Below are positions 3,031-53,214 of a DNA stretch of 64,000 bases, in pieces (positions within the stretch are counted from its first letter, which is position 1; each line of letters opens with the position of its first letter). The notes beneath the pieces are model-generated. The model saw nothing but the letters and a program-made list of their open reading frames with translations, did no database searches and had not been told where the DNA came from. Source of the stretch: Gemmatimonadales bacterium (lineage in GTDB: Bacteria; Gemmatimonadota; Gemmatimonadetes; Gemmatimonadales; GWC2-71-9); contig DASQIZ010000069.1 in NCBI GenBank assembly GCA_035631315.1, positions 409 to 64,408 on the forward strand, read 5' to 3'. The position numbers were made by a program, and so were the translations under genes.

Positions 3031-3446
3031 CCGGCGGCGGCTGGCTTGCGGCTACCGGCGACGGTGATCACGAGGACGGCGGCCAGGCTGATCAGGAGCT
3101 TCCACTTCCACTCGACTTCAGTCGCCGGTACGAAGACCTGAAGCAGGTCGAACAGGAAATCAAAGGCGCCGATGAGCAGGCCGAGCAGCACGGTGGGCTG
3201 GAGGACGCGGCCGAATTGCATGAGTGCGCCGGCCGCCACCAGCGCAAGGGCACCCTGCCCCGCGGAAATGGCGAGTACCCCGCTCCCCTCATCGAGCAGG
3301 TTGTGGATGATCGCCGCCCGGTGGACCAGGTGGCTGAAGAGGTAGGTGTCGAAGAGGAGGACGACGATCCCCGCCACCGCGGCGCAGACGGTCGCCCACA
3401 CCGCAAACCACACTACCACCCGGGACTGGTCGTTCGCGTCGGCCAT
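3027..3446 (-). CDS. small integral membrane protein (about 4 TM), function unknown
   Basis: 139-aa hydrophobic ORF. Its stop overlaps the start of the DUF2339-like gene (ATGA), implying co-translation. Confidence 0.5.
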   Translation of the reverse strand: MADANDQSRVVVWFAVWATVCAAVAGIVVLLFDTYLFSHLVHRAAIIHNLLDEGSGVLAISAGQGALALVAAGALMQFGRVLQPTVLLGLLIGAFDFLFDLLQVFVPATEVEWKWKLLISLAAVLVITVAGSRKPAAAG

Positions 3447-3496
3447 GAGTCCGTTCCGTAAGGACCGCCCAATCTGCGACTGGACCCGATTTCGCG

Positions 3497-5587
3497 CTAG
3501 CGCAGGGCCGCGCGGGCGTCCTCCAGCGCAGTGCGGGCGCCATCGATGCGGGACGCCAGGTCCGCGATCTCCCGCGCCGTCACCGCCTGATCGCCATACC
3601 GGATCGCCTCGGCCACCGTGGGAAACGCGAGGGTGGCGTACCCGTTGTCCACGTCAGACGCGAACTGCAGGCTCTTGAACCAGCTGCCCGCGTAGGTCAG
3701 CCCCTGCGGCCGGGTGAGACGGCGCTCCACCTGCATCAGCGCGCGCGTGACGCCTGCGGCCTTGGCGGTCGACAACGTCCCGGCAAGGCTCGAATCCCGC
3801 GCTGCCGCGAATGCCCGGGCACTCGTGATGAAGTGGTCGAGGGCCGCCTTCACCGCTTCGGTGTTCACGGACCAGCCTTTGCGGGAAATCCCCGTGTCGA
3901 GCTCGTTGACGAGCTCACGCATTTCCGCTCCAAACGCGGCGTAGTCGAGTGGAGCGACTGGCGCGTTCGCGAGCCGGGCAACAATCACGGCGTCCAGCTG
4001 CGCCGCGGTGCGGTGGGCCCGATACCCCGGGTCGCCGAAGGTCGTCATCCACTCGTAGTCGTCATACATGGAGTGGTAGACGCCTCCCGGGCCTCCGAAG
4101 CCTATTTCCCCGGCCGGGATACCCAAGTGGTGGTAGAACCCGGCGAAGTCCGATCCCCCACCCATGTTGCCGAGATCGAGCGCGGTCGTGTCGCCATGGT
4201 GCGCGGCCAGCCACGCGTCATACAGGGTGCCTGGACCCGAAAGCGCGGGGACGACCCGGGTCGAAGCGCGAATCAGGGGCTTCAGCGAAGGCGAGCCGGC
4301 GCCACCGAAGTTGGTGCCCGTCGCCATGGCGTCTTCGTTGATATAGGCCACGGCGCGGAGCTGGAGCGAGTCCGCCATCTGTTCCACCCACTCGGTCGAT
4401 CCGACATCTCCCCACTCTTCGGCGTCCCAGGTTGCGAAGATGATGGTGCGCGCTGGACGGATTCCCTTCTTCGCCAGCTCCCCGAACGCGCGGGCCGTCG
4501 CGAGTACCGTGGTGGTGCCGGTGATGTTGTCATCGGCCCCCGGTCCCCAGGCATCGCGGTGGGCGCCCATCACGATCCACTGGTCGGGGTACGTCGTGCC
4601 GCGGATCATCCCGAAGGTGTCCCAGATGGGGTGCATGGCGTGCACCCCCTGCTCCACACGGAGCACGAGATGGACCTGCGCCGGTCCGGGACCGACGTGG
4701 TACCGGAAGGGGAGTCCACCCTGCCATGGCTGGGGCACCGACGGGCCGCCGAGGAGGCTCAGGATTTTCTGCGCGTTGCCGTACCCGATGGGGATGACGG
4801 GGATGTGCGGTACGTCCAACGAATCGAACGGTACGCGACGCGCGCCGGGGAGCGACGCGTATCCCGGTGTCGTCGGGTCACCATCGGGGTTCAGCACACT
4901 GCCCCGCTGGATGCCACCCCAGGGCCGCATCGGGCCCTTCGGATAGACGTCGCCGCGAACATATCCGTCCTCGGCGGGATCCGAGTAGAGAATGAGCCCG
5001 AGCGCGCCATGCCGCTCGGCTTCGCGCGCCTTGATGCCGCGGTAGGAGCGCCCGTAGCGGGCGATCACGACCTTGCCTTTGACGCTGATACCGAGCGAGT
5101 CGAGAGTCCGGTAGTCCTCGATCAGCCCATAGCCGACGTAGACGGCATCACCGGTGACGTTGCCGCTCGCCGCGGTGCCGTTGAAGGCGAGAACCCGGGG
5201 TCCCATGGAGGTTGAGTCACCGGGAACGGCAGGCTCGGCGAGTGAGATCGGCTGCGGGGCGGCACCAGGTGCCGGGATGAGCCAGAGTGCCGAGGAATCC
5301 GGCTGAGGCAGAAAGACGTCGTACGTGGTGTACGACGTTTCAAGACCCCACGACTTCATGAGATTCAGCACGTAGTCGCGCGTCACGGCCTGCTGCGGTG
5401 TCCCCGACATGTGCGGGACCTTGCTCAGCGCCTTCGTCCACAGCCGGGCCGACTGCGTATCGGGGCTCGCGATCAGCGCGCGCTCGATCGAATCCTCGCG
5501 GGCGGCAGCGGAGGGAGAGAAGCCGACCTGTTGGGATGCGAGCGTGACGGGGGCGGCGACAAGCAAGGCAAGCACGACTGGGCGCAT
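3497..5587 (-). CDS. exported M28-family metallopeptidase (PA domain plus transferrin-receptor-like dimerisation domain; glutamate carboxypeptidase II-like)
   Basis: Domain order is recognisable by eye (PA-like insert, M28 core ..HRDAWGPGADDN.., C-terminal helical domain). Start set at ATG 5587 (MRPVVLALLVAAPVTLASQQ signal peptide) with GAGAGG 5 nt upstream. Confidence 0.8.
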   Translation of the reverse strand: MRPVVLALLVAAPVTLASQQVGFSPSAAAREDSIERALIASPDTQSARLWTKALSKVPHMSGTPQQAVTRDYVLNLMKSWGLETSYTTYDVFLPQPDSSALWLIPAPGAAPQPISLAEPAVPGDSTSMGPRVLAFNGTAASGNVTGDAVYVGYGLIEDYRTLDSLGISVKGKVVIARYGRSYRGIKAREAERHGALGLILYSDPAEDGYVRGDVYPKGPMRPWGGIQRGSVLNPDGDPTTPGYASLPGARRVPFDSLDVPHIPVIPIGYGNAQKILSLLGGPSVPQPWQGGLPFRYHVGPGPAQVHLVLRVEQGVHAMHPIWDTFGMIRGTTYPDQWIVMGAHRDAWGPGADDNITGTTTVLATARAFGELAKKGIRPARTIIFATWDAEEWGDVGSTEWVEQMADSLQLRAVAYINEDAMATGTNFGGAGSPSLKPLIRASTRVVPALSGPGTLYDAWLAAHHGDTTALDLGNMGGGSDFAGFYHHLGIPAGEIGFGGPGGVYHSMYDDYEWMTTFGDPGYRAHRTAAQLDAVIVARLANAPVAPLDYAAFGAEMRELVNELDTGISRKGWSVNTEAVKAALDHFITSARAFAAARDSSLAGTLSTAKAAGVTRALMQVERRLTRPQGLTYAGSWFKSLQFASDVDNGYATLAFPTVAEAIRYGDQAVTAREIADLASRIDGARTALEDARAALR

Positions 5588-37220: not shown

Positions 37221-39082
37221 AGTCCAGAAAGCTACCCGGGGAGCTCAATTATTGAAGGTCCAGCGGACTCCATAGACCTGCGCGTTCTTGGGGTAGTCCG
37301 AGCCGACGACGTACTGGGACCGCATGTAGTTGTTGTTGCGGATCTGCCAGAAGACCACCACCCCCGCGATCTGCATCTCGAGGTTGGTCTCGGTGAACGC
37401 GGCGCCATGGACCGGCTGCTGGCCGGCCACGGAAATCCCGCCCAGCGGTGACCGGCTCCACGATTCCGCCGCGTATTCCGCGCGCAGCCGGAAGATGCCA
37501 CTTCGGAACACCCGCCAGAACTTGGAGTCGAAGGTGAGTGAGTAGCGGCCGTGCGTGGGCGGCATGAAGGCGCCCCCACCGATCCGTGGCTGGTAGTACC
37601 AGCCGGAAAGCGTGAACCCCGGATAGGGCCGGATGCTGGCCTGAAAGGTCGCGACCGTGGTCTGCGGCGTGGGCGGCAGTGACCGCACCGCCGGGACTCC
37701 CAGCGCAAAGCCGATGGGCCTGTAAGGGTCGAGCCGTGCGGTCCCCGCTTCGACCGACGCGAAGCGGCTGTCCCAGCGTACCGCTCCGGAGTAGTCGACC
37801 GTGGTCTGCACTGAATCCTGCGCCAGCGCCGGCGCCTGGAGGTCCCGCGCCCAGGCAGCGTCACCTCGCAGGGAGAACCCGAGGGGAAGCGCGATTCCTG
37901 CCGAGCCGTGGGCGCGCGTGCCATGGCGTCCGCCACGGTACGCCGAGTGGCGGGCGTCGGCAGCCAGGGTGATCCACGGGAGCGGCGTCAGCGACGCGCG
38001 ACCGTCGAATCGCAGTGGCCACGTGCGATCAGAGAACGTGGCCGTCACGCCGACGGCCGCCCGATCGAGCGTCTCACTGAAATCGAACTGATCCTGCCAC
38101 ATCGACCGACTCACTTCCAACGCCGTGTCCCCACTCGCCGTCGTGGCAGAGAGCGCCGCCTGCGCGCGGAAGCCGAGTCCGTCGTCACGCTGTGCGTAGA
38201 AAGCGCGGAACATCGCATCCGAGCGCTTGGCCTTCCAATGTTGGATGGCGAGCGTCGTGTCCGTGACTCCCTGAACCTGCGGACTCTGGTCCCAACTCGA
38301 CACGATCAGCTCGTACTCGGCACCGTACTGGGGGCTCGGGATGTAGTCGCCCTTGAGCCAGACGTCGACGCCGTTGAACGGCGTGGTCGTCGTTCCCGGA
38401 TTGCCGTTGGTGTTGTTGTAGTCGGCGCCGAGAGTCAAACCGAATCCGGAGAGCCAGCGCTTTGCGAACCCGCCGCGGTATCCGGTGGTGGAGAACTGCC
38501 CCGTCTTCACGTCCACTTCGCTGGTCGCGAACGTCGACCGTTGTCGCATCGTGACGAGATAGACGCGCAGGGATCCCGGGAGCACCTGGACCTCAACCCG
38601 TTCCATGGGACCGAGAGGAATGCGCGCCGGGTCCAGCCACACGGAGTCGCGGCCGAGGGGCACGTACGGGACGCCGTCGAGGTAGACCTCGAGGGCGGCC
38701 GGTCCCCTGCCCGCGTAGAGCACGGGTTCTACCGCGCCGTAGAAACCCGGACGCGCGATGAACACGCCGGGGATGTGGTTCAACAAGTCCGACAGCGTGA
38801 CGATGTTCGAGAAGACGATCGAGTCGTGCGGGAAGACGTACCGGTCCCCGCGTGGCAGCGCCCCGCTCGGCACAGTGGCCGGCATCACCGGCAGGTAATG
38901 CGGGATCGTGTCCTTCGGTGTCGTGTCCTTCTTGGCGCCGAGCGTATCGGGGGGCGTCGTGTCACCCGGAGCCTGCGCGTGAGCCGTGTCCGCCGGTGGA
39001 CGCACCGGCTTCCGAGTGGTGTCGCTCTGTGCGCGAAGGGGCGCCGCTGCGGCTAAGCCTGCAGCGATTGCCAGCGCGAGCT

Positions 39083-40572
<1,490 letters not shown>

Positions 40573-41823: not shown

Positions 41824-41831
41824 TATATATT
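41824..41831. promoter_or_regulatory. AT-rich TATATATT box in the 35-bp icd / small-ORF divergent gap (possible shared -10 element)
   Basis: It is the only AT-rich octamer in an otherwise GC-rich region. It lies 10 nt upstream of ATG 41841 and ~19 nt upstream of the icd ATG on the other strand. Confidence 0.25.
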
Positions 41832-41840
41832 CCCCTACCG

Positions 41841-42206
41841 ATGCCGCAACGACGGTCGCCGCTTCTCGCGCTGATCCTGACCCTGGCCCTGGTGGCGTAC
41901 CCCGCCACGATGCCTCTGGCCATGGCCGCCGAAGTGCCGGCGTCCATGCCGATGTCGATGGATGGGCACACCCCGTGCCCTCACGCACATCAGCCCGCGC
42001 ACCATCACCACGCCATCAGCACGTGTTGCGCGGGTGCCTGCGGCACCTGCCCCATCATCTCCGTCTCCGCAGGCGTTCCCCCCCGGATCGGCCCTTCCGC
42101 CCGGGTGATGGTGTTCCAGAACGACCTCCCCGCGTCGCCTGAACAGTCTGCCGTTCGTCGTCTCCCCTATTCCATCGGTCCTCCTCCCGCTTCCAGTCTC
42201 GCCTAG
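41841..42206 (+). CDS. secreted Met/His/Cys-rich small protein (DUF2946-like, putative copper-binding)
   Basis: Signal-like [29 protein letters not shown], then [22 protein letters not shown] and [12 protein letters not shown]. High GC3 in this frame; lies directly upstream of the TonB receptor. Confidence 0.5.
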
Positions 42207-42279
42207 CACACCCACAACTGGGCCGTCTGGACTCCGGGACCGCGCGCTCGCGCTCCCGCTGACTTGCGTGAGGACACAC

Positions 42280-44280
42280 ATGAAGAAGACGTTGCTGAGC
42301 CTGGGCACGCTGTGCGCGTGCGCCACGTTCTCTTTGCCGGCGCAACAGAGCGACACGCTCCATGTGCACGGTGACAGCCTCAATCACCACCCCATCACCC
42401 TTGACGCGATCACGGTGACGGCGGCGCCCGTCAAACCGCACGAGCCCGCGACGACGGTGAAGATCTCGCCGTCCGTCATTCAGCAGACGCCGGCCACCGA
42501 CGCCTACGACCTGCTCCGGCAGGTCTCGGGGATCGAGGTGCACGAGCAGGGCCAGGGGCCCGGTTTCGCGTCGGACGCGTCGGTGCGCGGCTTTTCGTCG
42601 GACCACTCGACCGACATCGCGCTCTGGGTGGATGGCGTGCCGAACAACGAGCCCGTGAACGGACACGCCGAGGGCTACAACGACTGGAATCTGCTCTTTC
42701 CGGAGGCGATCTCGGAGATCGACGTCCTCAAAGGACCCACGAGTGCGGTGTACGGCAACTTCGCCTTCGCCGGCGTGGTGAACGTCCAGACGCTCGAGCG
42801 CACCGACGGAACGTCTCTCTATCTGGATCCCGGCTCGTACGGTCATTGGGGTGGAACGCTGCTCACGGGCTACGACCGGGGAACGAATGGCGGAGTCTTC
42901 GGCCTGCGCGGTGAGCATGAGGATGGCTGGCGGCCCAACAGCGCCTACGACCTCGGCCAGGCGCACGCGCGCGTGGTTCAGGGGCTCTCGTCCGTGACGA
43001 CGCTCGACGCCGGCGTCGAGCTGTACTCCACCCAGTGGAAATCCCCGGGCTTCCTCTCCGACAGCGCGTTCCAGGCCAGTGATTTCGGCCGGGTCGAGAA
43101 CCCGACCGACGGTGGCTACAAGCATCGCGCGCAGGAACGTGTGAGCTTCCGCGTGCTGGCGGGTCCCTCACTGCTCTGGCGGACGACGTTCTACTCCACA
43201 CAAGGCCGCTGGCAGCTCTACCTCACCATTCCTCCGGAGTCTGGTGGCGGCGAAGGCACGGGCAGTCAGACCGAGGAAGAGGACAAGCGGTACGGCCTGG
43301 GCATGACGAGCGCGCTGACCTGGTATCTCGATCGCGCGGAGATCACCGTGGGCACCGAAACGCGGTACGATCACTCGCGGTATGAAAACTGGTTCACGAC
43401 GGACCGCGTTCGCGATTCCGCCCAGACGCTGGTGAATGCGCATCAGGGCTCGGCCGCGCTCTTCGCCCAATCGAGCGAGGACCTCGGCCCGCACTTCCGC
43501 CTGTCCCTCGGTGGCCGGATCGATTTCCAGAATACCGGCGCAACACCGGACAGCGGCCCGGCCGCGAGTCACGGCAAGGCCATCTTCTCACCGAAGCTCG
43601 GCCTGCTCTATCACCTCCCGGTGGCGGGTGACGTCTACGCCAACGTGTCTCGCGGGTTCCGGCAGACCGACGGCGTGATCGAAAACCCATACCTGCCGTT
43701 CATTACGGTCTGGGCGTACGAGGCAGGCTTCAAGGTGGACGGGAGCGTCGTGAACGCGAGCATCGCGCTCTTTCGGAACGACGTGAGCAATGAGCAGACC
43801 TTCAATCCCATCCTCCTCACCAGCGTGAGCGGAGGCTCGAGCCGGCGCCAAGGCGTCGAGGTGGATTTCCTCGCGCGTCTGGCACCGTCGGTGCACCTCA
43901 CCGGTGACTGGACGGTCACAGACGCGAAGTACGACCACCTGATCACCGAGACCGGTGACACGCTGAACGGCGCGCGCGTCTTCAATACGGCGAAGTTCAC
44001 CGGCATCTCGGCGCTCGAAGTGGCGCCCGACAGCGCCCCCTGGCGGCTGCGGCTGTCGACGAACGTCGTCGGTCCATACAGCCCCCTTGATGAGCCGGGC
44101 GTGACTCTCCCGACCTATGCGCTGTTCCATCTGTCTGGTGGGCTACGGGTCGGGCGTTCCGAGCTGCAGGTGGGAGTCCGGAATCTCTTGAACCACGAGT
44201 ATCCGGAGCTGGAAGCGGGCGGGTTTGTGACGCCGGGTGAGCCGAGGTCCGTTTTCGGGACGATCCGCTACACGTTCTAA
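42280..44280 (+). CDS. TonB-dependent outer-membrane receptor (metal/chelate type suspected)
   Basis: Signal MKKTLLSLGTLCACATFSLPAQ, plug (DAITVTA..VSGIEV..VRGF..), barrel, and terminal ..GTIRYTF. There is a His run HVHGDSLNHH at the mature N-terminus. Confidence 0.85.
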   Translation: MKKTLLSLGTLCACATFSLPAQQSDTLHVHGDSLNHHPITLDAITVTAAPVKPHEPATTVKISPSVIQQTPATDAYDLLRQVSGIEVHEQGQGPGFASDASVRGFSSDHSTDIALWVDGVPNNEPVNGHAEGYNDWNLLFPEAISEIDVLKGPTSAVYGNFAFAGVVNVQTLERTDGTSLYLDPGSYGHWGGTLLTGYDRGTNGGVFGLRGEHEDGWRPNSAYDLGQAHARVVQGLSSVTTLDAGVELYSTQWKSPGFLSDSAFQASDFGRVENPTDGGYKHRAQERVSFRVLAGPSLLWRTTFYSTQGRWQLYLTIPPESGGGEGTGSQTEEEDKRYGLGMTSALTWYLDRAEITVGTETRYDHSRYENWFTTDRVRDSAQTLVNAHQGSAALFAQSSEDLGPHFRLSLGGRIDFQNTGATPDSGPAASHGKAIFSPKLGLLYHLPVAGDVYANVSRGFRQTDGVIENPYLPFITVWAYEAGFKVDGSVVNASIALFRNDVSNEQTFNPILLTSVSGGSSRRQGVEVDFLARLAPSVHLTGDWTVTDAKYDHLITETGDTLNGARVFNTAKFTGISALEVAPDSAPWRLRLSTNVVGPYSPLDEPGVTLPTYALFHLSGGLRVGRSELQVGVRNLLNHEYPELEAGGFVTPGEPRSVFGTIRYTF

Positions 44281-44291
44281 GCTTCGCGGCG

Positions 44292-44389
44292 AACAGCGCC
44301 GGGCCCTTCCGTCGTCTGCCGTGCGCGTTCAGGATCAAATCGGACCCCGTGAAAGGCGCACAGAGGCCGACTCCGGGCCCGGCGCTGTT
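44292..44389. terminator. perfect 15-bp inverted repeat (AACAGCGCCGGGCCC / GGGCCCGGCGCTGTT) spanning the convergent gene gap
   Basis: Arms at 44292..44306 and 44375..44389, 68 nt apart, with partial inner complementarity. They fill the gap between the TBDR stop (44280) and the B2-like stop (44396). Confidence 0.4.
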
Positions 44390-44395
44390 TACGTC

Positions 44396-44911
44396 TTAGC
44401 GAGTTGCCTCAAGCGGTTCAGGAAACCGGGCAATTGGCGTGTGGACTGCTGCATGGTCCTCGTCAGCTTCCAAGTATGGTCTGTCGCTCGATGTCAGCCA
44501 CGCGTGGGCGCTCACGTCGCCACCCCCACGAACGCCGATCCACAACTGAACTGGCCTGCCGGCGTGCCGCAGGAGCGCGTACAGCACCACGGCGCGCCGG
44601 AGGCAGGTTCGCCGCCAGGGCCACGGGAGTGCATTGAGGATCTTGTCGACCCACACGGCGAGTGCCTGGTCATCAAGAGACACCGAAGCCGGCGAGCTTG
44701 CCGAGATCAGCGGGAGGAGGCGGGACAGCGAGAAGATTTCGAGCAGCGGTGGCGCTGCGAGGGCGACGAGTAGTGCCCGGAGGCGCCAGACCGGCGGGAG
44801 CGTCAGTGCTCCGCGACGGGTGCGGGCTTCAGCGTCTTGAGCAGATCGACGGCGTGGTACCCGTTCAGGTCCGCAATGTAGAGCGAGTCGCCGTAGTTCA
44901 CGGTGGGCCAC
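44396..44911 (-). CDS. orphan lasso-peptide-type B2 protein homologue (Transglut_core3-like cysteine protease)
   Basis: ..WPWRRTCLRRAVVLYALLRHAGRPVQLWIGVR....SAHAWLT....YLEADED shows the Cys/His/Asp order and context typical of B2/McjB-C-terminal-domain proteins. The start is unresolved (GTG 44911, CTG 44806 or GTG 44683). Confidence 0.55.
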   Translation of the reverse strand: MAHRELRRLALHCGPERVPRRRSAQDAEARTRRGALTLPPVWRLRALLVALAAPPLLEIFSLSRLLPLISASSPASVSLDDQALAVWVDKILNALPWPWRRTCLRRAVVLYALLRHAGRPVQLWIGVRGGGDVSAHAWLTSSDRPYLEADEDHAAVHTPIARFPEPLEATR

Positions 44912-45837
44912 CGCTCTGGGTGATCGGGCACGAAGAGCGCCATCATCTCGCCCATCACGTCCCGCAGCGTGTCCCTGGTCGGATTCTCGTATGTCGCAAT
45001 CAGTCGATACGGATGCCCGGCATGGATTCTCAAGCCCCGGTCCCACAGCGCGAGGACATGGAACGGGAGCTCCTTGATCTCGCCCGAATCGCCGAGGACC
45101 GCATTGGTCTGCACCAGGACCTTGCCGGTCTCCGCATCTTCGAGCCGAACTCCCCGGCCATAGTCATGCAGGTGACCACCTGCGCCCAGGAGCCACCCTG
45201 AGAGCGGGAACGTAATGATCGCGGACTTCTCGTGGCGGCCGGGCGGCACATCGTAGGTGTTCGACTGACCGTAGTGCGCGTTCACGTCCAGGTTCACCGG
45301 GAACGTGGACAGTGGCTGTGGCAATTCGTTCGCCGGCAACCACAGGAGGTTGATCCGGAGATAGACGCCGTGCTGCGCGGTGGTCCCGCCGTTGTGCCAC
45401 ATGATGTACAGCGCGAGTCGCTGGCCCGGAGACAACGGCGTCCCGACCGACGCGGGAGCTACCACCGCCGCCGGCGTCAGCCCCGCCGCCGCCATCCGCT
45501 CGGCCACCGGATCGAAGAGCGTGCGGCGATCGAGGTTGATCAGGGTGAAGTGATGGAGCAGATCGCGCGGGAGCGGCTTGCCGTGCGCGTCGATCACCTC
45601 CGACTCGAATCCACGGAACCAACCCTTCACGGGCCAGGCGAACGCCTGCGCCAAGGTGTCGGGCATCATCGCATCCATCGACATGCCTTCCATCGGCGGC
45701 ATCGGCTCCAGGTCGAACGGACCGGCGACGACCACCACACGGTGATGTTTCTCGTCGAGGGTCACGCCCGGCTTCGGCGCCTGCGCGGACGCCGTGGCGC
45801 CCGCGAGCAGCAGTCCGATGGTCAGGAGACGACGCAT
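44803..45837 (-). CDS. secreted Met-rich protein, paralogue 1, with a PHM/DBH-like copper-ligand motif pattern
   Basis: Signal MRRLLTIGLLLAGATASAQA. Met-rich LEPMPPMEGMSMDAMMPD. HH95-96 (DLLHHFTL), H148, H222xH224 (GGHLHDYG), M295/298/299 (VMGEMMALF). The CDS call is solid; the function is inference. Confidence 0.5.
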   Translation of the reverse strand: MRRLLTIGLLLAGATASAQAPKPGVTLDEKHHRVVVVAGPFDLEPMPPMEGMSMDAMMPDTLAQAFAWPVKGWFRGFESEVIDAHGKPLPRDLLHHFTLINLDRRTLFDPVAERMAAAGLTPAAVVAPASVGTPLSPGQRLALYIMWHNGGTTAQHGVYLRINLLWLPANELPQPLSTFPVNLDVNAHYGQSNTYDVPPGRHEKSAIITFPLSGWLLGAGGHLHDYGRGVRLEDAETGKVLVQTNAVLGDSGEIKELPFHVLALWDRGLRIHAGHPYRLIATYENPTRDTLRDVMGEMMALFVPDHPERWPTVNYGDSLYIADLNGYHAVDLLKTLKPAPVAEH

Positions 45838-45838
45838 G

Positions 45839-46888
45839 CTAGCGACGGCTCCCTTGCATCGCGGCTCGGGAGGCCTGCGTCAGCGAGTCGGGCAACGTGG
45901 TGATGCCGTATGTCGCGAGGTCTGCCCAGAGATCTTTGCTCGCGTAGTCCATCTTCGGCCACTTCGAGAGGTCATCCGGCGCAAAGATCGCCATGATCTC
46001 GCCCATGGCTTCCGACAACGTGTCCTTCGTGGTGTTGTCGTATGCGGCGGTCATCGTGTAGGGATGATCGGCCTCGATGTGCAATCCCTGCCCGGTCACC
46101 GCGAAGAGTTTCCGCGTCATCCCGAGCATCTGTCCGGCCGAGTCGAGTACCGGGCGCAGCTCGAAGAGCACCTTCCCCGTCACGGAGTCCTGGAGCTTAA
46201 TGTAGGAGCCGTACTCGTGGAGGTGGCCACCGGCGCCGAGCATCCGTCCGGAAATCGGGAAGCGGAACGTGCGTGTGCGCTCGGTCCTGCCGGGGGGCAC
46301 GGGATACATGTTGTCCGCACCCGGGAAGAGGTCCACATCCATCACCACGGGGAGTGCCGAGGTGGGGGGCGGTTGCATGTTCGCCGGCATATAGAGAAGG
46401 GTGAGCTTGACGTACACCCCCTTCACGGTATCGGGGTGACTATTGAACCACATCATGTACACACCCATCCGGGTCCCGCGCGTGAGCGGAGCGCCGATCG
46501 ACTTGGGCGCGACGATGTCTTCGTTCTGGTAACGTGCCGAGGCGAGACGTTCGGCGAAAGCGTCAAAGAGCGTGCGGCGGTCGAAGTTGAGAAGAGTGAA
46601 ATGGTGGATCAGGTCGCGCGGCATGTCGCCGCCGGCGCCATTGATGGCCCTCACGTGGAAGCCGTAGAACCACCCCTGCTCCGGCCAGACGAAATACGAC
46701 GCCATCTCGCCCATGTGGTCCATGGACATGTCCATCCCCATCATCTCCATCCGGTGCCCCATCGGCGGCAGCGTGTAGGGTCCGGCGGTGATGGTGATGG
46801 TGTGGTGCTTCCGGTCGACGACGACTCCGGTCTTGATGGAGTCCGTCGCGGGAGCTAGGAGGGTCAGCGCAGCAAGTAGTGGCAGCAT
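45839..46888 (-). CDS. secreted Met-rich protein, paralogue 2, with a PHM/DBH-like copper-ligand motif pattern
   Basis: Alignable over its full length with paralogue 1. PPMGHRMEMMGMDMSMDHMGEM; HH95-96 (DLIHHFTL), H151, H222xH224 (GGHLHEYG), M295/299 (AMGEIMAIF). Its stop is 1 nt from the paralogue 1 start. Confidence 0.5.
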   Translation of the reverse strand: MLPLLAALTLLAPATDSIKTGVVVDRKHHTITITAGPYTLPPMGHRMEMMGMDMSMDHMGEMASYFVWPEQGWFYGFHVRAINGAGGDMPRDLIHHFTLLNFDRRTLFDAFAERLASARYQNEDIVAPKSIGAPLTRGTRMGVYMMWFNSHPDTVKGVYVKLTLLYMPANMQPPPTSALPVVMDVDLFPGADNMYPVPPGRTERTRTFRFPISGRMLGAGGHLHEYGSYIKLQDSVTGKVLFELRPVLDSAGQMLGMTRKLFAVTGQGLHIEADHPYTMTAAYDNTTKDTLSEAMGEIMAIFAPDDLSKWPKMDYASKDLWADLATYGITTLPDSLTQASRAAMQGSRR

Positions 46889-46896
46889 GTCAGCCT

Positions 46897-46922
46897 AACG
46901 CGTTGGTCGGGAGTCGGGTTCC
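46897..46922 (-). promoter_or_regulatory. ECF-sigma-like promoter candidate GGAAC-N17-CGTT immediately upstream of the paralogue operon
   Basis: The minus strand reads GGAACccgactcccgaccaacgCGTTaggctgacATG. The -10-like box ends 8 nt before the ATG and no SD is visible, so the transcript may be leaderless. Confidence 0.2.
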
Positions 46923-47017: not shown

Positions 47018-47839
47018 TCAGGTCGTCTGGCTCAGCTGCACGCAGCGGCCCAGGAGTACGGGATCGCCAAAGGCGGTGCCATTACCGTCCGTGAAGGCTG
47101 CGAAGATCCATGGGTTTCCCCCCACCCCCCCGAGGACCGGTTGCTTCGGGAACGAGAAGTCCATGCCCGCCGGAAGAATCGTCATGGTCTGACTCCGCAC
47201 CGCGGAATGCGTCAGCTTCACGTTGTTGCTGAAGATCATCTGCATGCCCAGCCCTTCGAACGCCATGTCGGCATCCATGCTGATGAAGGGACCGGGATTG
47301 TTGTTGCACTCGGAGACCGCGAAGTCCGCGGAGACGTCGGCGCGCGGGTCTTGCGCGGAGGCAAAGTCGAGGCGCGAGCCCTGCACGCAGCGCCCCACAA
47401 AGATCGCGTCGCTTGCCGGCGCGCCGCTCGCGTCGATGAACTGCACCCAGATAAAGGGGTTGCCACCCACGCCGCCGAGCACCGGCTGCTTTGGGATGAC
47501 GATGTCCGTGCCCGCCGGCTGCAGAACGGTCTCGACATCCTTGTCCACCGTATACGTGTGGGTGTCCTTCAGATTGTTGCTGAAGAGCATGTCGACGCCG
47601 AACCCCGCCAACGCTGCGGTGCCGGAGAGCGTGATCTGCGGGCCGGGACTGTTGCTGCAGCCATCGATCGTGAGCGCGAAGTTCACGGGGACGGCAACTC
47701 CAGTGAGGCTGACATGCGGCAAGGACGACACGTTGCTCAGCGTAGACGTGCGGCTGGGGGCGGTTGGCAGGGCCGAATGCGGATTTTCACACGCGGCCAG
47801 CAGCAACACCCCAACTCCGAGATACAGGGTCCTCAACAT
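47018..47839 (-). CDS. lipoprotein with two tandem ~100-115 aa repeats of an unrecognised domain
   Basis: Lipobox LLLAAC. Start at ATG 47839 with GGGAGGA upstream. Repeat motifs: C-(S/N)N(S/N)PGP .. FSNN(L/V)K..TH .. PKQPVLGGVGGNP(F/W)I .. GRCVQ. Confidence 0.7.
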   Translation of the reverse strand: MLRTLYLGVGVLLLAACENPHSALPTAPSRTSTLSNVSSLPHVSLTGVAVPVNFALTIDGCSNSPGPQITLSGTAALAGFGVDMLFSNNLKDTHTYTVDKDVETVLQPAGTDIVIPKQPVLGGVGGNPFIWVQFIDASGAPASDAIFVGRCVQGSRLDFASAQDPRADVSADFAVSECNNNPGPFISMDADMAFEGLGMQMIFSNNVKLTHSAVRSQTMTILPAGMDFSFPKQPVLGGVGGNPWIFAAFTDGNGTAFGDPVLLGRCVQLSQTT

Positions 47840-48025: not shown

Positions 48026-48088
48026 TGCCCGAGGAGAGAGTCGAACTCTCACGGCGTTGCCCCTCCTCCGCGAATGCCATTCCGGCGG
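48026..48088 (-). pseudogene. decayed tRNA-Leu copy (T-arm, variable arm and 3' acceptor retained; anticodon arm and 5' acceptor lost)
   Basis: 48026..48054 is identical to 49119..49147. 37 of 38 nt are identical through the variable arm, and the D-loop GGAATGGCA is also retained. No anticodon stem-loop and no complementary 5' acceptor strand. Confidence 0.7.
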
Positions 48089-49065
48089 CGCGTGGCGGGG
48101 GGCGCGAAGTTAGGCCGCTTGGGAGGACAGGTTGTGATGGGGACGGAGCCCGACCCGGCACAGAACACGCCTTTCAGGCCGTCTGCAAACATACCGGTGA
48201 GGGTACTGAGGTAGAAGGACGCGCCCGCCCCGATCGTGCTGCATAGTGTTCCACCGTTGAGCGACACATCGGCCGACTCGAGATCGGTCAGAGTGACGTT
48301 GGTGACGTAGACCTCGTCCACACCCTGCCCCGTGTTCTCCAGGCGCCCGAAATCCAGGTGCGCCGTCAACCCGACGGTGGGGATGGACCCGGCCGCGGTA
48401 TTCACCGCGAGGCCGCACTGGATGCCCGCGGCTTCGAGCGGGATATCCACGGTGGTCGACACGGCCAGGCGGGCCGTGATGTCGACCTGGAGCGCGACAG
48501 GATTCCCCGCCACCGCCAGGCTCTCTCGGACCACGGTCACCGCGACCGGAGACCCGGGAACGCCGCCGGAGCAATTGACGGTGATGGTTCCGCCGCAATT
48601 TGCCGCGACGGTGAACGCCGATCCGGTGAGAAACTCGCCCACGGCGTACGCGGTGACGGAGTCCGCCGACAGCGGGCGCGCGTAAGCGAAGGCCTTGAAC
48701 GTCGTGCTCTCCGCTCGGACCGCCAGAACCGCCACCGCCCGCTGGAGGCCCACCGTGTCCCCCATGGTCCAGAGGGTCGTCGCTCGACCCAGCGAGTCGG
48801 TGGAAGCCGATGGGGTGCCGACGCTCCCGCCCCCCGACAGTACGGCAAAGGACACCGGGACATTCGGCACGCCGTGGCCGCTCGAGTCCATCACCACGGC
48901 CACGAGCGGCTTCGCCAGTGACGCAGCCCAGTAACCGGTCTGCGTGTCCCCTGCCGCCGTGACGACGGCGACGGGCACGTGCGACGTGTTGGAGGGACCG
49001 GTGGCGGTCGAGGAGCACCCACCGAGGACGAACCCGACGAGAGTGGCAGTGAGTTTGGCGCGCAT
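48049..49065 (-). CDS. lipoprotein with N-terminal Ig-like (Big-type) domain, function unknown
   Basis: Lipobox FVLGGC. Ig-like segment ..VAVVMDSSGHGVPNVPVSFAVLSGGGSVG..TDSLGRATTLWT... The last 13 codons and the stop lie inside the tRNA relic. Confidence 0.65.
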   Translation of the reverse strand: MRAKLTATLVGFVLGGCSSTATGPSNTSHVPVAVVTAAGDTQTGYWAASLAKPLVAVVMDSSGHGVPNVPVSFAVLSGGGSVGTPSASTDSLGRATTLWTMGDTVGLQRAVAVLAVRAESTTFKAFAYARPLSADSVTAYAVGEFLTGSAFTVAANCGGTITVNCSGGVPGSPVAVTVVRESLAVAGNPVALQVDITARLAVSTTVDIPLEAAGIQCGLAVNTAAGSIPTVGLTAHLDFGRLENTGQGVDEVYVTNVTLTDLESADVSLNGGTLCSTIGAGASFYLSTLTGMFADGLKGVFCAGSGSVPITTCPPKRPNFAPPATRRRNGIRGGGATP

Positions 49066-49118: not shown

Positions 49119-49201
49119 TGCCCGAGGAGAGAGTCGAACTCTCACGGGGTTGCCCCCGGGGGATTTTGAGTCCCCTGCGTCTGCCATTCCGCCACTCGGG
49201 C
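49119..49201 (-). tRNA. tRNA-Leu (anticodon CAA)
   Basis: Hand-folded cloverleaf: acceptor GCCCGAG/CTCGGGC, anticodon stem GGGGA/TCCCC with loop CTCAAAA, long variable arm CGGGG-GCAA-CCCCG, T-arm GAGAG-TTCGACT-CTCTC, discriminator A. No encoded CCA. Confidence 0.9.
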
Positions 49202-49286: not shown

Positions 49287-49718
49287 GTGGAACGCAGAGC
49301 AGATGGCATGACCGGGGCGCGGTGGCTCAGAAGTGGACCCCCGTTCCCCGAGGCCGAGTTGATGATCGTGGCAACGTATCGTCGTGGCATTTCGTCCGAC
49401 GTCTACATCTCCACGCTCGACCCGATTCTCGCCCCGCGCCTCGGCGGCGCCCTGGTGCGGTCCGCGGTGCACCTCTACACCCCGGAGCCCGTCCCTTTCC
49501 CCTCCCCAGCCCAGATGCGGGTCGGGGGATGGGACTGGTCTTTCGTTCCCGTGGTGCTGGAAGCGAAGCAAGTCGCCGTGGCCGCGCGACACGCCGACCA
49601 GGGATTCGAGTTCTTGAAGATTTATTCGCCCACCCGACTGGTGGAAGGGCTGGGATTGACCGAGGGGTGCCTGGTGAACGTCGAGTTCCTCTCGGGGGTC
49701 CATCTCGACATGCCCTAG
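49287..49718 (+). CDS. hypothetical protein (no recognisable family)
   Basis: High GC3 in this frame and a non-Arg-biased composition. The likely start is ATG 49362 (MIVATYRRG..). Its stop overlaps the kinase stop in the palindrome CTAG. Confidence 0.45.
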   Translation: MERRADGMTGARWLRSGPPFPEAELMIVATYRRGISSDVYISTLDPILAPRLGGALVRSAVHLYTPEPVPFPSPAQMRVGGWDWSFVPVVLEAKQVAVAARHADQGFEFLKIYSPTRLVEGLGLTEGCLVNVEFLSGVHLDMP

Positions 49719-51625
49719 GTGAGCAGGTCCTCGATCCCGGCCGTGCGCAGGAGCCGTGCGTAACGCGGATCGCGGGCCAATCCATGGTGGTCGTACGGAA
49801 GGTCGTTCAACACGCGGCGCAGCCGCCCTGGCCGCCGGTGATAGGCCCGTTCCACCCAATCCATGGCCTGCGTCCATTCCCCAAGCTCCGCGAGCACGAT
49901 GAGGATCTTGTCGGCCAACTGGCGCGTGCTGCTGCGGTCCTCGAAGGCATCTTCCTGCTGCGCGCGAGCCTGAAGCTCCGCGAGCTCCCGCCGCAAGTCA
50001 CGATCGCGCGCCTCGATCCAGCCGAACTCGGTCGCGTCAGCGGTCACCTGGGCGATCCGCTCTTTCGCGCCACGCACTCCCAGCAGCATCCGGCGCGCGT
50101 CCAGCGCGTCGTCGTGACGGCCGGCGCGATGACAGCTCATCTCGAGACGCTCCAGAGCGGCGTCGTACCGCGGCAGCAGCCGGAGGGCCTGACGCAGCGG
50201 ACCGATCGCCTCGTCGTAGCGGCCCATCGCCATGAGTACGTCGGCCAGACCGACGTGCATGAACGGCGCCTTCGGAGCGAGGTGCGTCGCCTCCCGCATG
50301 TGTTCCAGAGCTTCGGGCAGGCGTCCCGCGATCCGGAGCCAAGCACCGTAGAGGCGATGTCCCTCGGCCAGGTCGGGGGCCAGCTCGACACCCCGCGCGA
50401 GCTCGGTGCCGGCCATCTCGAAATCGTCTTCCCAATACAGGAACATCGTCCCGAGAGCCACGTGCAAGTCGCCGAGGGAGTCGTCGACCGCGAGCGCGCG
50501 CAGCCTGAGCTCACGGACCTTCGGCTTCATCTCCTCCGGATCGCTGAACCCCCTGACGCCAAGGAGGAGCAGAATGTCGGCGAGTGCGACCAACGCCGCG
50601 GCGCTGCCCGGTGCCAACGCCACCGCCTTCTCCCCGTACACCCGCGCCATCAACAGTTTGTCCTGGGCGCCCTCCCCACCCTGCATCCCGTTGCGGAATA
50701 ACTCGCGCACCTTCGCCGTCAGCTCGCGGACCTCGGGTGGGTCCCCCGGCTTCTCGGGGGCCGGGCGCTTCACGGGCGCCGAAGGACGACGCGGACCCGG
50801 CGCATCGAGGGGACGCAGGGCGTCCAGCACAGCCGCCGCATCCTTGGGACGCTGATCGCGATCCTTGGCGAGGAGTTGCTCCACGAGGGCCGCGAGCCCG
50901 GCATCGACGTCGGCGCGAGTGTCCCGCAGCGGTGGGACGTCGTCGGTGAGGTGCGCCGCGAGCGTGGCCATGGCGGTCGGACGCACGAACGGCGGCTGCC
51001 CGGCGAGCAGCTCGTACGCCACGCATCCGAGGCTATACAGATCGGCGCGTCCATCGACCGCCTGGTCACCGGACGCCTGCTCGGGGCTCATGTAGAAGAC
51101 GGTGCCGACGATCGTGCCCGTGGCGGTGAGCGGTGTATCGGCGAGAGCGACCCGCTCCTGCGTCGCGATCCCGAAATCCGCGAGCAGCGCGCGTCCACCG
51201 TACCAGAAAATGTTTTCAGGCTTCACATCGCGGTGGACGACACCCATCCCGTGCGCATAGGCCAGGGCTTCCGCGGTATCGGCCAGGATTCGGGTGACGA
51301 CGCGGGGTTCGAGGGCCTTCTTCCCTTCGAGCTGCGCACGCAGCGTAGCGCCGTCGATAAACGGCATCACGTAATACAGCCAACCGTCCGACTCGCCGGA
51401 GTCGAAGAGCGGCACGATGTTCGGATGGACGAGCTGCGCGGTGAGGCGGATCTCGCGCAGGAAGCGCTCGGCACCGAGCGCCTTCGAGAGATCGGGCGTA
51501 AGCACCTTGATGGCCACGTCCCGCTCGAGCGCGTTGTCCCGCGCCAGCAGCACCGTGCCCATCCCGCCGCGCCCCAGCTCCCGCGACACCGTGAATCGGC
51601 TGGGAAGGACCGGGCGGAGCGTCAC
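49715..51625 (-). CDS. serine/threonine protein kinase with C-terminal TPR repeats
   Basis: GRGGMGTV, AIKVL, HRDVKPENI, DFG, SPEQ motifs, then about 300 aa of TPR-like helices. The GTG start is GTGA-coupled to the upstream gene. Confidence 0.85.
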   Translation of the reverse strand: MTLRPVLPSRFTVSRELGRGGMGTVLLARDNALERDVAIKVLTPDLSKALGAERFLREIRLTAQLVHPNIVPLFDSGESDGWLYYVMPFIDGATLRAQLEGKKALEPRVVTRILADTAEALAYAHGMGVVHRDVKPENIFWYGGRALLADFGIATQERVALADTPLTATGTIVGTVFYMSPEQASGDQAVDGRADLYSLGCVAYELLAGQPPFVRPTAMATLAAHLTDDVPPLRDTRADVDAGLAALVEQLLAKDRDQRPKDAAAVLDALRPLDAPGPRRPSAPVKRPAPEKPGDPPEVRELTAKVRELFRNGMQGGEGAQDKLLMARVYGEKAVALAPGSAAALVALADILLLLGVRGFSDPEEMKPKVRELRLRALAVDDSLGDLHVALGTMFLYWEDDFEMAGTELARGVELAPDLAEGHRLYGAWLRIAGRLPEALEHMREATHLAPKAPFMHVGLADVLMAMGRYDEAIGPLRQALRLLPRYDAALERLEMSCHRAGRHDDALDARRMLLGVRGAKERIAQVTADATEFGWIEARDRDLRRELAELQARAQQEDAFEDRSSTRQLADKILIVLAELGEWTQAMDWVERAYHRRPGRLRRVLNDLPYDHHGLARDPRYARLLRTAGIEDLLT

Positions 51626-52107
51626 CCCTTTTTCAAAGCGGCCTTGATCCGCGCCAGATGATGGAAGCTGTGCCGCATCGCGTGGTCTTCGATGAAGAAC
51701 TGCGCCGTGACCGGCGCGCCACCGTAGAGGGACACCGGCGCGGCACGGTCCAGCTGCGCATCAGTGAGCTCGCGAATCGCCCTCGCGGCGGCTCCCGAAT
51801 TCTTGCCGAGAAGCTCCAGGGCCTCCACCTTGGACGTCGTTCCATGGTCGTGCGCGTGCTTCGCGTTCATCTGCGCGACGACACCCCAGCTGAGATCGTC
51901 GATGGATTTCCCCATCGCGAGCGCCTGCGCGAGCTGGACCTCGGCAGGATACATGCTCGCAACGTGATGGATCATCACGCCCACCGCGCGCCCATCGGGC
52001 GCCACCGTGGCCCGCCACTCGGCGTCCGACAAACCGTTGGCGAACTTGGTGAGGGCAGATGCTCCCTGCTCGAGACGCTCGGCGAGGGCGTCGGCTCGGG
52101 CGCTCAT
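51622..52107 (-). CDS. DinB-family (DinB_2-like) four-helix-bundle metalloprotein
   Basis: 161 aa with His residues at helix ends (..MIHHVAS.., ..AKHAHDH.., ..EDHAMRHSFHH..), typical of the DinB/YfiT fold. Confidence 0.55.
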   Translation of the reverse strand: MSARADALAERLEQGASALTKFANGLSDAEWRATVAPDGRAVGVMIHHVASMYPAEVQLAQALAMGKSIDDLSWGVVAQMNAKHAHDHGTTSKVEALELLGKNSGAAARAIRELTDAQLDRAAPVSLYGGAPVTAQFFIEDHAMRHSFHHLARIKAALKKG

Positions 52108-52168
52108 GGGTCACGTCCTGGGATTGGGGTGACCCGGAATATAGTCACAAACTGGGACGACGTTTCAG

Positions 52169-52672
52169 CTAGACAGCGGGCCCGACTCTCTCCCGCAGCA
52201 CCTCGCCCAGGGCCGTCGCATCAGGCATGAACCGTTTCGGTACGACGTGATAGGTCCCGTCGGGCGCGTAGATCAGGTAGAGCAGCTCTCCTTGCGTCCA
52301 TCGTTTGACATCTTCCCACCGTTGCGACGGGGGCGCGTACGCCGACGTGCGCACGCCGAAGTCGGACACTTCCACCGTGTATGGACGCTGGATGTTGGGA
52401 TCGTGCTTGAAGGCGCGTCGAGTTCGTATCCAGAGCCAGATTCGATCAACGACGACGTAGCCGTTCATCAAGAACACCAGGAAGAATGGCCCGACCCACA
52501 CGTCGGCCGGCAGGAAAATGACGGAGTAGATGGCGAGGAAATGGACTACGAGCAGCGTCACCCACAAGGCCGACGCGTGACGGCCGACCCACGTGGTTCT
52601 CGAACGGTTCAGGCGCCGGGCCTGAGCGATGTCTTCGGGAGTGAGTTGAACGGTGACGGTGATGGAGTCCAT
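52169..52672 (-). CDS. YcxB-like membrane protein
   Basis: Two central TM helices (ALWVTLLVVHFLAIYSVIFL / PFFLVFLMNGYVVV) flanked by soluble segments. The assignment is weak. Confidence 0.4.
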   Translation of the reverse strand: MDSITVTVQLTPEDIAQARRLNRSRTTWVGRHASALWVTLLVVHFLAIYSVIFLPADVWVGPFFLVFLMNGYVVVDRIWLWIRTRRAFKHDPNIQRPYTVEVSDFGVRTSAYAPPSQRWEDVKRWTQGELLYLIYAPDGTYHVVPKRFMPDATALGEVLRERVGPAV

Positions 52673-52681
52673 CGGCGGTGC

Positions 52682-53170
52682 TTACCGCGACAGACCCCCA
52701 CGCACTTCCTGCGGATCCCCTTCATCCAGCACGATGGCTTCGGCCTCGATCAAGCGGGCGCGCAGCGCGTACTGGAACTCAGTGCTCGCTTCGACTTGGT
52801 GAATGAAATCCTTCAGCGACCCGACGTCGCTCGCCCAGATCTCGACTTCGTCCATCTCGGCGGGCGCGCCTTCGAACCGGAAATCGATCCCCACCACGCG
52901 GGCCGTCGATCCCCAGCCGCCTTTCGCGTCGGTCACCTGCCGGCACAGACGAATTTCGAAGACCGGGTCGAGCGCGTTCTCCCGGACCCACGTGGTCTGG
53001 AAGCCCGCGATATCGGCCTGGGCATCGGAGGGCACCGCGAGATATTTCTGGAAGACGTCCCAGGCGGCCCGAAACGAAAAATGCGGGGCCGTAAGCCCCG
53101 CATCCGCCAGCATATACTGGAGCGCGGGGAGGGCGGTGAGCGTGTTCACTCGGAGCTCGATCATGGTCAT
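52682..53170 (-). CDS. hypothetical cytoplasmic protein
   Basis: 162-aa ORF with coding-like composition and no recognisable motif. Confidence 0.45.
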   Translation of the reverse strand: MTMIELRVNTLTALPALQYMLADAGLTAPHFSFRAAWDVFQKYLAVPSDAQADIAGFQTTWVRENALDPVFEIRLCRQVTDAKGGWGSTARVVGIDFRFEGAPAEMDEVEIWASDVGSLKDFIHQVEASTEFQYALRARLIEAEAIVLDEGDPQEVRGGLSR

Positions 53171-53214
53171 AAGAACTTAGCTCCTGCCCATCCTAGCCGC
53201 TTGTACCGATTCTG

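Follow-up and report, generated by a model that had tools for sequence, protein, structure and literature searches.

A large unannotated bacterial protein family predicted to share the fold of peptidylglycine alpha-hydroxylating monooxygenase, and its setting in a variable locus of Gemmatimonadales

We analysed a 64,000-nucleotide stretch of DNA (the window) from a Gemmatimonadales bacterium (assembly GCA_035631315.1, contig DASQIZ010000069.1; the source is a 224-kb metagenome contig, ENA ERZ27257174), and concentrated on a block of five genes lying between icd and a tRNA-Leu(CAA) gene. The block carries a small exported open reading frame (ORF) and the gene of a TonB-dependent transporter on the plus strand, on which three minus-strand genes converge; these encode two exported paralogues, named C and D here, and a lasso-type B2 cysteine protease. 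An initial annotation prepared from the sequence had listed these genes, and all five were confirmed in the window sequence at the coordinates given in Table 1. Our main result is that C and D are members of a large, unannotated bacterial family which, on the evidence of structural models, belongs to the fold class of peptidylglycine alpha-hydroxylating monooxygenase (PHM) and dopamine beta-hydroxylase (DBH), and is distinct from these enzymes in its substrate anchors, in the third ligand of the CuH copper site and in a Met-rich loop. PHM and DBH, textbook enzymes of animal neuropeptides and catecholamines, are noncoupled binuclear copper monooxygenases whose chemistry is, to our knowledge, seen as an essentially eukaryotic one. 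For the block as a whole we lean, at slightly better than even, towards three adjacent units in a variable slot rather than one pathway, namely an import operon, the pair of PHM-fold genes and an orphan B2 gene.

The paralogues are encoded 1 nt apart and are 45% identical to each other (E 7e-103). The signal peptide is canonical in D, and that of C has no charged n-region. The ratio of nonsynonymous to synonymous substitution rates (dN/dS) was 0.05-0.13 for C and 0.09-0.14 for D. Neither protein matched a Pfam or NCBIfam model, and the Pfam models of the PHM domains (Cu2_monooxygen and Cu2_monoox_C), which the initial annotation had proposed as a test, gave no match in C, D or 88 relatives even at E<=10. 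Searches of the PDB sequences with phmmer and with a family profile in hmmsearch did not retrieve PHM. AlphaFold2 models were built with family alignments, and had a mean predicted local distance difference test score (pLDDT) of 87.8 and a predicted template modelling score (pTM) of 0.84 for C, and a pLDDT of 84.9 for D. When these models were compared with the PDB using Foldseek, all of the top 31 matches were PHM or DBH, the latter being human dopamine beta-hydroxylase, for C (best E 6.9e-11) and equally for D (best E 5.6e-10), in agreement with the fold proposed at the outset. The next matches, at E>=1e-6, were viral double-jelly-roll capsids, GH172 and PNGase F. TM-scores to PHM and DBH were about 0.5 and the root-mean-square deviation was high, as would be expected of two rigid domains modelled at a different hinge angle. 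The models thus support a two-domain beta-sandwich of the PHM/DBH type for both C and D.

Residues were mapped onto PHM by aligning the family with the rat PHM core (100% identical to 4e4z) in hhalign, an alignment that was weak (E 0.05) and was used for residue mapping only. H222 and H224 were placed on PHM H242 and H244, and VPPG on IPPG. The order of the ligands, HH...(H)...HxH...M, is that of PHM and DBH, and their spacing is close to that in PHM: 126 residues separate HH from HxH here (134 in PHM), and 71 separate HxH from M (70 in PHM). The PPG motif that precedes the CuM strand aligns as well, and the proteins are exported in both cases. The position of the third CuH His (148) was equated with PHM H172 by ungapped extension of the strand alignment, not by superposition.

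A profile search of 1.84 billion representatives (clusters at 50% identity) recovered 1,273 clusters at E<=1e-3, 247 of them at E<=1e-30. No Pfam or NCBIfam model covers this family, and the ten clusters whose names were looked up were called 'hypothetical protein' or carried no name. Ligand conservation was read from an alignment (A2) of 88 diverse full-length members with a mean column identity of 25%. Of the CuH pair, H95 was found in 87/88 and H96 in 86/88 members; for CuM, H222 was present in all 88, H224 in 87 and M295 in 87. The match to the CuH and CuM motifs that had been noticed earlier therefore stands for five ligands (86-88 of 88) and in part for the third CuH His, which is Phe148 in C and is His in 47/88 overall. 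Position 148 is Phe in C and in every C-type orthologue, and His in D. Near-invariance at this level of divergence shows that the resemblance to the PHM motifs did not arise by chance; the five positions are putative copper ligands of the PHM type, and the proteins would bind copper through them.

The substrate side of the PHM active site is not retained. R240, N316 and Y318 of PHM anchor the carboxylate of the peptidyl-glycine, as is known from PHM-substrate structures. When the alignment is anchored on the motifs, G220 (Gly in 71/88) takes the place of R240, N316 falls at the variable position 297, and Y318 at position 299, also variable (Gly/Ala/Val). Because the carboxylate-binding residues are absent, C and D are not peptidyl-glycine hydroxylases. 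A different set of residues in both domains is near-invariant and specific to the family (R105, R114, Y277, R278, Y283 and N285), which suggests, from the alignment, a pocket different from that of PHM. C and D further differ from PHM and DBH in lying outside the detectable sequence family, in the variable third CuH His, in being bacterial and predicted to be periplasmic, and in a Met/His-rich inserted loop. They contain no cysteines and therefore, unlike PHM and DBH, no disulfides.

The inserted loop follows the first strands and is disordered, and in the family as a whole it is of variable length, with a Met+His fraction of 0.159 compared to 0.068 in the rest of the protein; at least four Met or His residues occur in it in 40/88 members. 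In C, it comprises residues 38-64, and of these 27 residues 9 are Met and 2 are His; pLDDT falls below 50 at residues 49-58. Longer family members carry fused GT2 and PAP2 domains, which give no lead on function, and neither a Pfam scan nor inspection of these longer members revealed a DOMON or cytochrome domain together with the PHM-like proteins. A literature search on bacterial PHM-like enzymes, or on PHM in clusters for peptides synthesised on the ribosome and modified after translation (RiPPs), found nothing relevant.

Two side observations concern the family. Weak matches to the Pfam model SURNod19 (plant 'stress up-regulated Nod19') were seen in 3/88 members (best E 0.0095). Nod19 is a reported target of miR398, a microRNA of copper homeostasis known to target Cu/Zn superoxide dismutase (PMC3882225), and plant Nod19 may be a distant relative of the PHM-like family and also a copper protein. 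In addition, a third and more distant PHM-like gene (40% identity) was found at L090, a locus in the same metagenome-assembled genome (MAG) as locus L015 and on another contig (L numbers designate the loci of relatives). Since this MAG also bears C and D, genomes of the window's clade carry at least three family members.

We then asked what accompanies the PHM-like genes in other genomes. One genome per GTDB species was scanned with a first alignment (A1) as the query, A2 being too divergent for this purpose, and at least 401 loci encoding PHM-like relatives were found. Neighbourhoods were counted in the best 79 loci, almost all from Gemmatimonadales, using tblastn with the other proteins of the window. 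Of the 79 loci, 4 had an adjacent B2 gene, 3 a related receptor and 1 the small protein, and all loci with any of these neighbours belonged to a single clade of Gemmatimonadales with 84-91% identity. The single conserved system of PHM-like proteins, B2 and TonB receptor envisaged in the initial annotation is thus not borne out by these counts. In about 95% of the 79 loci, the PHM-like gene stands alone among housekeeping genes of the opposite strand, recurrent ones being groES/groEL, L27/L21 and genes for DUF1207-like and NlpC/P60-like proteins (names were taken from representative sequences read by eye and from Pfam calls of locus L008). Among other contexts, CopD lies near one lone family member, and AhpC/TSA next to another.

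Close relatives of the window are Gemmatimonadales MAGs, and within the clade three architectures were found, all between tRNA-Leu(CAA) and icd. In the first (L001/L015, L002, L100, L101), C and D are followed by a pair of precursor-like ORFs and then by genes for an HprK-like P-loop protein, PqqD, B2 and NTP_transf_5, after which come the convergent transporter and small ORF. The second (L010, L014, L094-L098) consists of C, D, a TMEM175 gene and B2, and then the transporter. The third, to which the window belongs (also L013, L016, L092, L093), has C, D and B2, followed by the transporter.

The minus-strand gene downstream of D is of the B2 type, as the initial annotation had concluded: it scored 61.5 bits with NCBIfam lasso_biosyn_B2 (NF033537; cut-off 33) and 55.6 bits with Pfam Transglut_core3 (PF13471; cut-off 26). 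C68 (in RRTCLRR), H101 (in AHAW) and E113, which lies 12 residues past the His, are invariant in 6 orthologues. This third residue is Glu rather than the Asp of McjB. At least 10 loci, spread over the three architectures, have an intact frame. For the gene as a whole dN/dS was 0.16-0.24 (0.16-0.22 against orthologues of the same architecture, with dS near 0.9), and for the catalytic core it was 0.05-0.13.

The gene has no conventional start. No ATG, GTG or TTG occurs in its frame from the stop codon of D to codon -23 relative to RRTCLRR, and the sole start-like codon there is a CTG that overlaps the TGA of D (CTGA, 44806..44803). A canonical start at -59 is found in only 2/9 genomes (ATG in L094 and GTG in L016), where the window reads GTC. 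The junction CTG has position -64 in the window, L013, L016, L092, L093 and L094, and -66 in L014/L010; in L015/L002, the same Leu-Thr codons (CTG ACT) occupy -70. In every locus, the sequence CACTGA, in which CTG shares two bases with the upstream TGA, precedes the B2 domain, both where D lies upstream and where TMEM175 does. The start of B2 is probably this CTG, and translation would then proceed by termination-reinitiation at the stop junction of D. B2 is probably still translated, because purifying selection persists although the native start has been lost. A frameshift fusion of B2 with D was considered and rejected, since no slippery sequence can be seen where the two genes meet, and in other genomes an identical junction comes after TMEM175. 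The gene caller used for the source contig had called neither B2 nor the small ORF.

In one sub-lineage, a gene of the TMEM175 potassium-channel family lies between D and B2 (L014:2790-3360, L010:5345-5914, L094:3425-3994). D and TMEM175 both end in CACTGA, and a deletion between these 6-bp repeats would yield exactly the D-B2 junction of the window.

A tblastn search of the 64-kb window detected no homologue of the precursors, the HprK-like kinase, PqqD (the RiPP recognition element, RRE) or the nucleotidyltransferase. Precursors and PqqD are kept in the relatives L015, L100 and L101, and more distant B2 homologues (43-55% identity) all lie in kinase-PqqD-B2-nucleotidyltransferase cassettes (L099, L103-L110), which occur without a PHM-like gene upstream in L108 and L109 and without a transporter downstream in L107. 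By gene content, then, the B2 gene is all that the window retains of a lasso-like tailoring cassette, which is still present at the same position in close relatives. The initial suggestion of a RiPP-like pathway fits these relatives, which have precursors, HprK-like kinase, PqqD, B2 and NTP_transf_5 here, and fails for the window, where the partners of B2 are missing. The precursors share a leader, (M/V)KKPF(V/I)EPxLxEEASLADVTL, and have hypervariable cores of 7-14 residues (SSGGGYDLGKNGGA, SSGPGIAN, SSGGGSAE, SSGGTIS), without a C-terminal Gly. No lasso cyclase or exporter was present among the called genes around the cassette in L001/L002, and the window was not scanned for a cyclase specifically.

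Lasso clusters of the paeninodin/pseudomycoidin type comprise A, C, B1, B2, a kinase K and a nucleotidyltransferase N (PMC8498205). The cassette of the relatives resembles these in its HprK-like P-loop protein, PqqD-type B1, B2 and NTP_transf_5, and in precursors with Thr at -2 of the predicted cleavage site. It differs in the short cores (7-14 residues), most of which have no ring-forming Asp/Glu or C-terminal Ser, and in the lack of a cyclase or exporter in the cassette loci examined; the window keeps only B2. The cyclase-less cassette may represent an undescribed class of linear RiPPs that uses lasso-type leader-processing parts.

On the plus strand, the transporter gene starts with an ATG preceded by a GAGGA Shine-Dalgarno sequence, and its product matched the Pfam models Plug (E 1.6e-21) and barrel (E 1.3e-27), which agrees with its original assignment. 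Its dN/dS was 0.16-0.17. A His-rich extension, DTLHxHGDxLxHHP, stands just before the TonB box in 8/8 orthologues. The protein fell below every NCBIfam subfamily cut-off, including that of the TonB-copper model TIGR01778 (27 bits versus 472). Its best matches among PDB sequences were BtuB, ShuA, Cir and CntO, and neither CrtA nor OprC was among the matches at E<=1e-5. We therefore rejected an OprC or CrtA copper type for the transporter, TIGR01778 being far below its cut-off and neither protein appearing among the PDB matches.

The small ORF lies 73 nt upstream of the transporter gene on the same strand, and precedes the orthologous transporter in the window, L015, L092, L093, L094, L095, L100 and L101. 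Its homologues form 20 clusters, all in the window's clade. The 15 homologues compared share an export signal and a His run, and their invariant residues are H57, C62C63xGxC67GxC70P and L108PxxI112GPP115. The distance from CXXC to IGPP is 41 residues in 15/15, and IGPP lies 4-6 residues before the C-terminus. DUF6153 matched 9/15 homologues weakly, below the gathering score (best E 9.8e-5). A C-rich, G-poor tract, which covers the final 60 nt of the ORF and runs into the beginning of the spacer, has the strongest GC skew of the region (-0.49 and -0.35 in 80-nt windows), and by analogy with the Rho-dependent attenuation of CruR it is a possible Rho-utilisation site.

CruR of Bordetella pertussis is a DUF2946 upstream ORF whose CXXC senses copper; its arrest motif RAPP lies 45 +/- 2 residues after CXXC and 3 residues from the end, and CruR controls Rho-dependent termination ahead of a TonB-dependent transporter (PMC9426467). 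CutF of Rhodobacter capsulatus combines a Sec signal with CxxxC and is rich in proline at its C-terminus (PMC9973294). CrtA and OprC are copper-related TonB-dependent transporters (PMC12914433, PMC8610252), and more than 40% of crtA operons have a CruR-like ORF ahead of the transporter gene. The small ORF of the window is likewise an exported first gene directly upstream of a TonB-dependent transporter, with CXXC/CXXXC cysteines, a fixed spacer and a Pro-Pro motif near the C-terminus. It differs from CruR in its IGPP motif and its 41-residue spacer, and from CruR and CutF in an extra CC pair and a HHHH run, in the absence of a PepSY_TM gene after the transporter, and in coming from Gemmatimonadota, a phylum outside those listed by the authors of the CruR and CutF work. 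The transporter resembles CrtA in being TonB-dependent and preceded by a CruR-like ORF; it is shorter (666 versus 707-911 residues), and its clade-specific His-rich N-terminal extension sets it apart from CrtA and OprC. By analogy, we regard the small ORF as a candidate for a divergent CruR/CutF-like copper-sensing leader, which leaves the copper link proposed earlier for the small protein and the receptor plausible. A role as a partner in a chalkophore-type pathway, also proposed earlier, gave way to that of a candidate regulatory leader ORF, and a metallophore precursor was rejected on the grounds of the export signal, the length, the fixed motif spacing and the leader position.

In the reading towards which we lean, the interval from tRNA-Leu(CAA) to icd in this genome of a soil member of the Gemmatimonadales would be a variable slot that holds three units. 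In the first, the nascent leader peptide would bind copper through its His run and CCxGxCGxCP during export; copper binding would alter ribosome pausing at the C-terminal IGPP, and pausing would decide whether transcription or translation runs on into the transporter gene, in the manner shown for CruR-CrtA and CutF-CutO. When copper is limiting, the transporter would bring it into the cell, either as such or as a chelate. In the second unit, C and D would carry CuM (HxH...M) in the C-terminal sandwich and CuH (HH with or without the third H) in the N-terminal sandwich, and the flexible Met/His-rich loop would capture Cu(I). C and D would most likely be periplasmic copper-dependent, oxygen-activating hydroxylases with a substrate other than peptidyl-glycine, D with the full set of ligands and C with a modified CuH. 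The third unit would be B2, as the only survivor of a cassette of precursor, HprK-like kinase, PqqD, B2 and nucleotidyltransferase, likely translated by coupling to the stop codon of D. It is plausible that the first unit supplies copper to the second.

Several observations weigh against this reading. For C and D, similarity to PHM at the sequence level is insignificant (hhalign E 0.05; no PDB match by hidden Markov model, HMM), the third CuH His is missing in 41/88 members, C included, and no reductant partner is evident. For the leader ORF, the DUF2946 search suggested in the initial annotation gave weak matches only, in 7/15 homologues and below the Pfam cut-off (best E 0.0016); its motif is IGPP where CruR has RAPP, with a spacer of 41 rather than 45 residues, and the predicted RNA fold of 42150-42300 was no better than that of shuffled sequences (z -0.9). 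Finally, the five genes stay together within the clade through three rearranged architectures, which would fit a functional connection beyond the reach of synteny statistics drawn from distant relatives. This togetherness is also a reason to consider one integrated copper RiPP or chalkophore pathway, in which B2 and the PHM-like oxidases would mature a peptide, the receptor would take it up and the small protein would serve as partner or substrate. In relatives, a genuine RiPP-like cassette does separate D from the receptor, and its duplicated precursors have a leader in common and differ widely in their cores; B2, which evolves under purifying selection, directly adjoins the stop codon of D; and copper-type motifs are found on all exported proteins. 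However, the window has no precursors, RRE, kinase or nucleotidyltransferase, some 95% of loci have the PHM-like gene by itself, there are cassettes that lack a PHM-like gene (L108, L109) or the receptor (L107), and no cyclase or exporter is present in the cassette loci examined. B2 has no signal peptide, in contrast to the exported C and D, the features of the small protein suit a regulatory leader, and the residues by which PHM holds a peptidyl-glycine are absent, as is a terminal Gly from the precursor cores. We give such a pathway little credence.

That C and D are not enzymes, and instead bind or sequester periplasmic copper on a PHM scaffold, in resistance or as chaperones, is a more serious possibility, if an unlikely one. 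Flexible Met/His-rich loops are typical of Cu(I) handling, and the variable third CuH His, the CopD gene near one family member, the lack of a reductant partner or DOMON/cytochrome domain and the missing substrate anchors would all suit such a role. Both metal sites are nevertheless near-invariant at about 25% identity, R105, R114, Y277, R278, Y283 and N285 are kept along with them in a pattern more typical of a catalytic pocket, and purifying selection is strong (dN/dS 0.05-0.14). In a further scenario, which we consider very unlikely, C and D would be true periplasmic copper monooxygenases that found a large prokaryotic branch of PHM/DBH; they would ancestrally have tailored the short peptides of the adjacent kinase/RRE/B2/nucleotidyltransferase cassette, the copper-bound product being re-imported by the copper-regulated TonB-dependent transporter, and the window would be a reduced version in which B2, C/D and the transporter remain in use with a peptide encoded elsewhere. 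A last alternative concerns B2 alone and overlaps with the other readings, namely that its ORF in the window is a dead remnant of the lost cassette. There is no canonical start for 41 codons past the stop of D, the ATG of L094 and GTG of L016 being GTC in the window, the ORF was skipped by the gene caller of the assembly, and all usual partners are gone. A pseudogene is, however, improbable given the purifying selection described above, which persists at a dS of about 0.9, the intact frame in at least 10 loci of three architectures, the invariant catalytic Cys and His, and the conserved CTG within the upstream stop codon.

On the reading of three adjacent units, the locus matters for what it adds to each. 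More than 1,000 clusters of exported bacterial proteins with a predicted PHM fold and the HH and HxH/M ligands have so far had no database model or name, and they offer a testable entry point to the role of such copper centres in bacteria, to the reductant that replaces ascorbate and to the dispensability of the third CuH ligand. The candidate leader would extend CruR/CutF-type copper-sensing ORFs to Gemmatimonadota with a variant arrest motif. Reduction of the cassette can also be followed through a natural series within the clade, and there the lasso-type B2 survives under selection with neither its recognition partner nor a start codon of its own.

Table 1. Features of the block in the window, and precursor-like ORFs in related loci
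Feature	Position	Strand	Remarks
Small exported ORF, 121 aa	41841..42206	+	First gene of the receptor operon; candidate copper-sensing leader ORF resembling CruR/CutF
C-rich, G-poor tract	42140..42259	+	3' end of small ORF and spacer; GC skew; possible Rho-utilisation site
TonB-dependent outer-membrane transporter, 666 aa	42280..44280	+	Pfam Plug and barrel; His-rich N-terminal extension before TonB box
Orphan lasso-type B2 cysteine protease gene	44396..44806	-	NF033537, PF13471; probable CTG start in CTGA
PHM-fold (predicted) paralogue D, 344 aa, exported	44803..45837	-	All six PHM-type ligand positions; AlphaFold2 and Foldseek
Met-rich loop of paralogue D, counterpart of that in C	45646..45717	-	
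PHM-fold (predicted) paralogue C, 349 aa, exported	45839..46888	-	HH/HxH/M kept, Phe148 at third CuH position
Met-rich disordered loop of paralogue C, residues 38-64	46697..46777	-	pLDDT and composition
Precursor-like ORFs (relatives)	L002:4376-4483, 4745-4834; L101:3017-3124, 3387-3473; L100:139-228		

A scan for sigma-70 promoters and terminators gave nothing above background. In the relatives L002, L092 and L094, no more than about 130 bp separate tRNA-Leu(CAA) from gene C. The window has an insertion of two lipoprotein-like genes (47018-47839 and 48049-49065, the latter with a weak Big_1 match) between tRNA-Leu (49119-49201) and C, and L013 has a 2.2-kb insert at the same tRNA-proximal site, which looks like an insertion hot spot. 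Further along, the interval from tRNA-Leu to a cluster of extracytoplasmic function (ECF) sigma and anti-sigma genes (window 49715-53200) contains an extra Ser/Thr kinase with TPR repeats, a DinB_2 protein and a YcxB-like protein, and these three were not found in the same interval of L092, L094 and L002. On the other side of the block, a 700-residue ORF downstream of pepA (37245-39347, minus strand) appears to encode an outer-membrane beta-barrel-like protein, and its counterpart in L001 has a weak Plug match.

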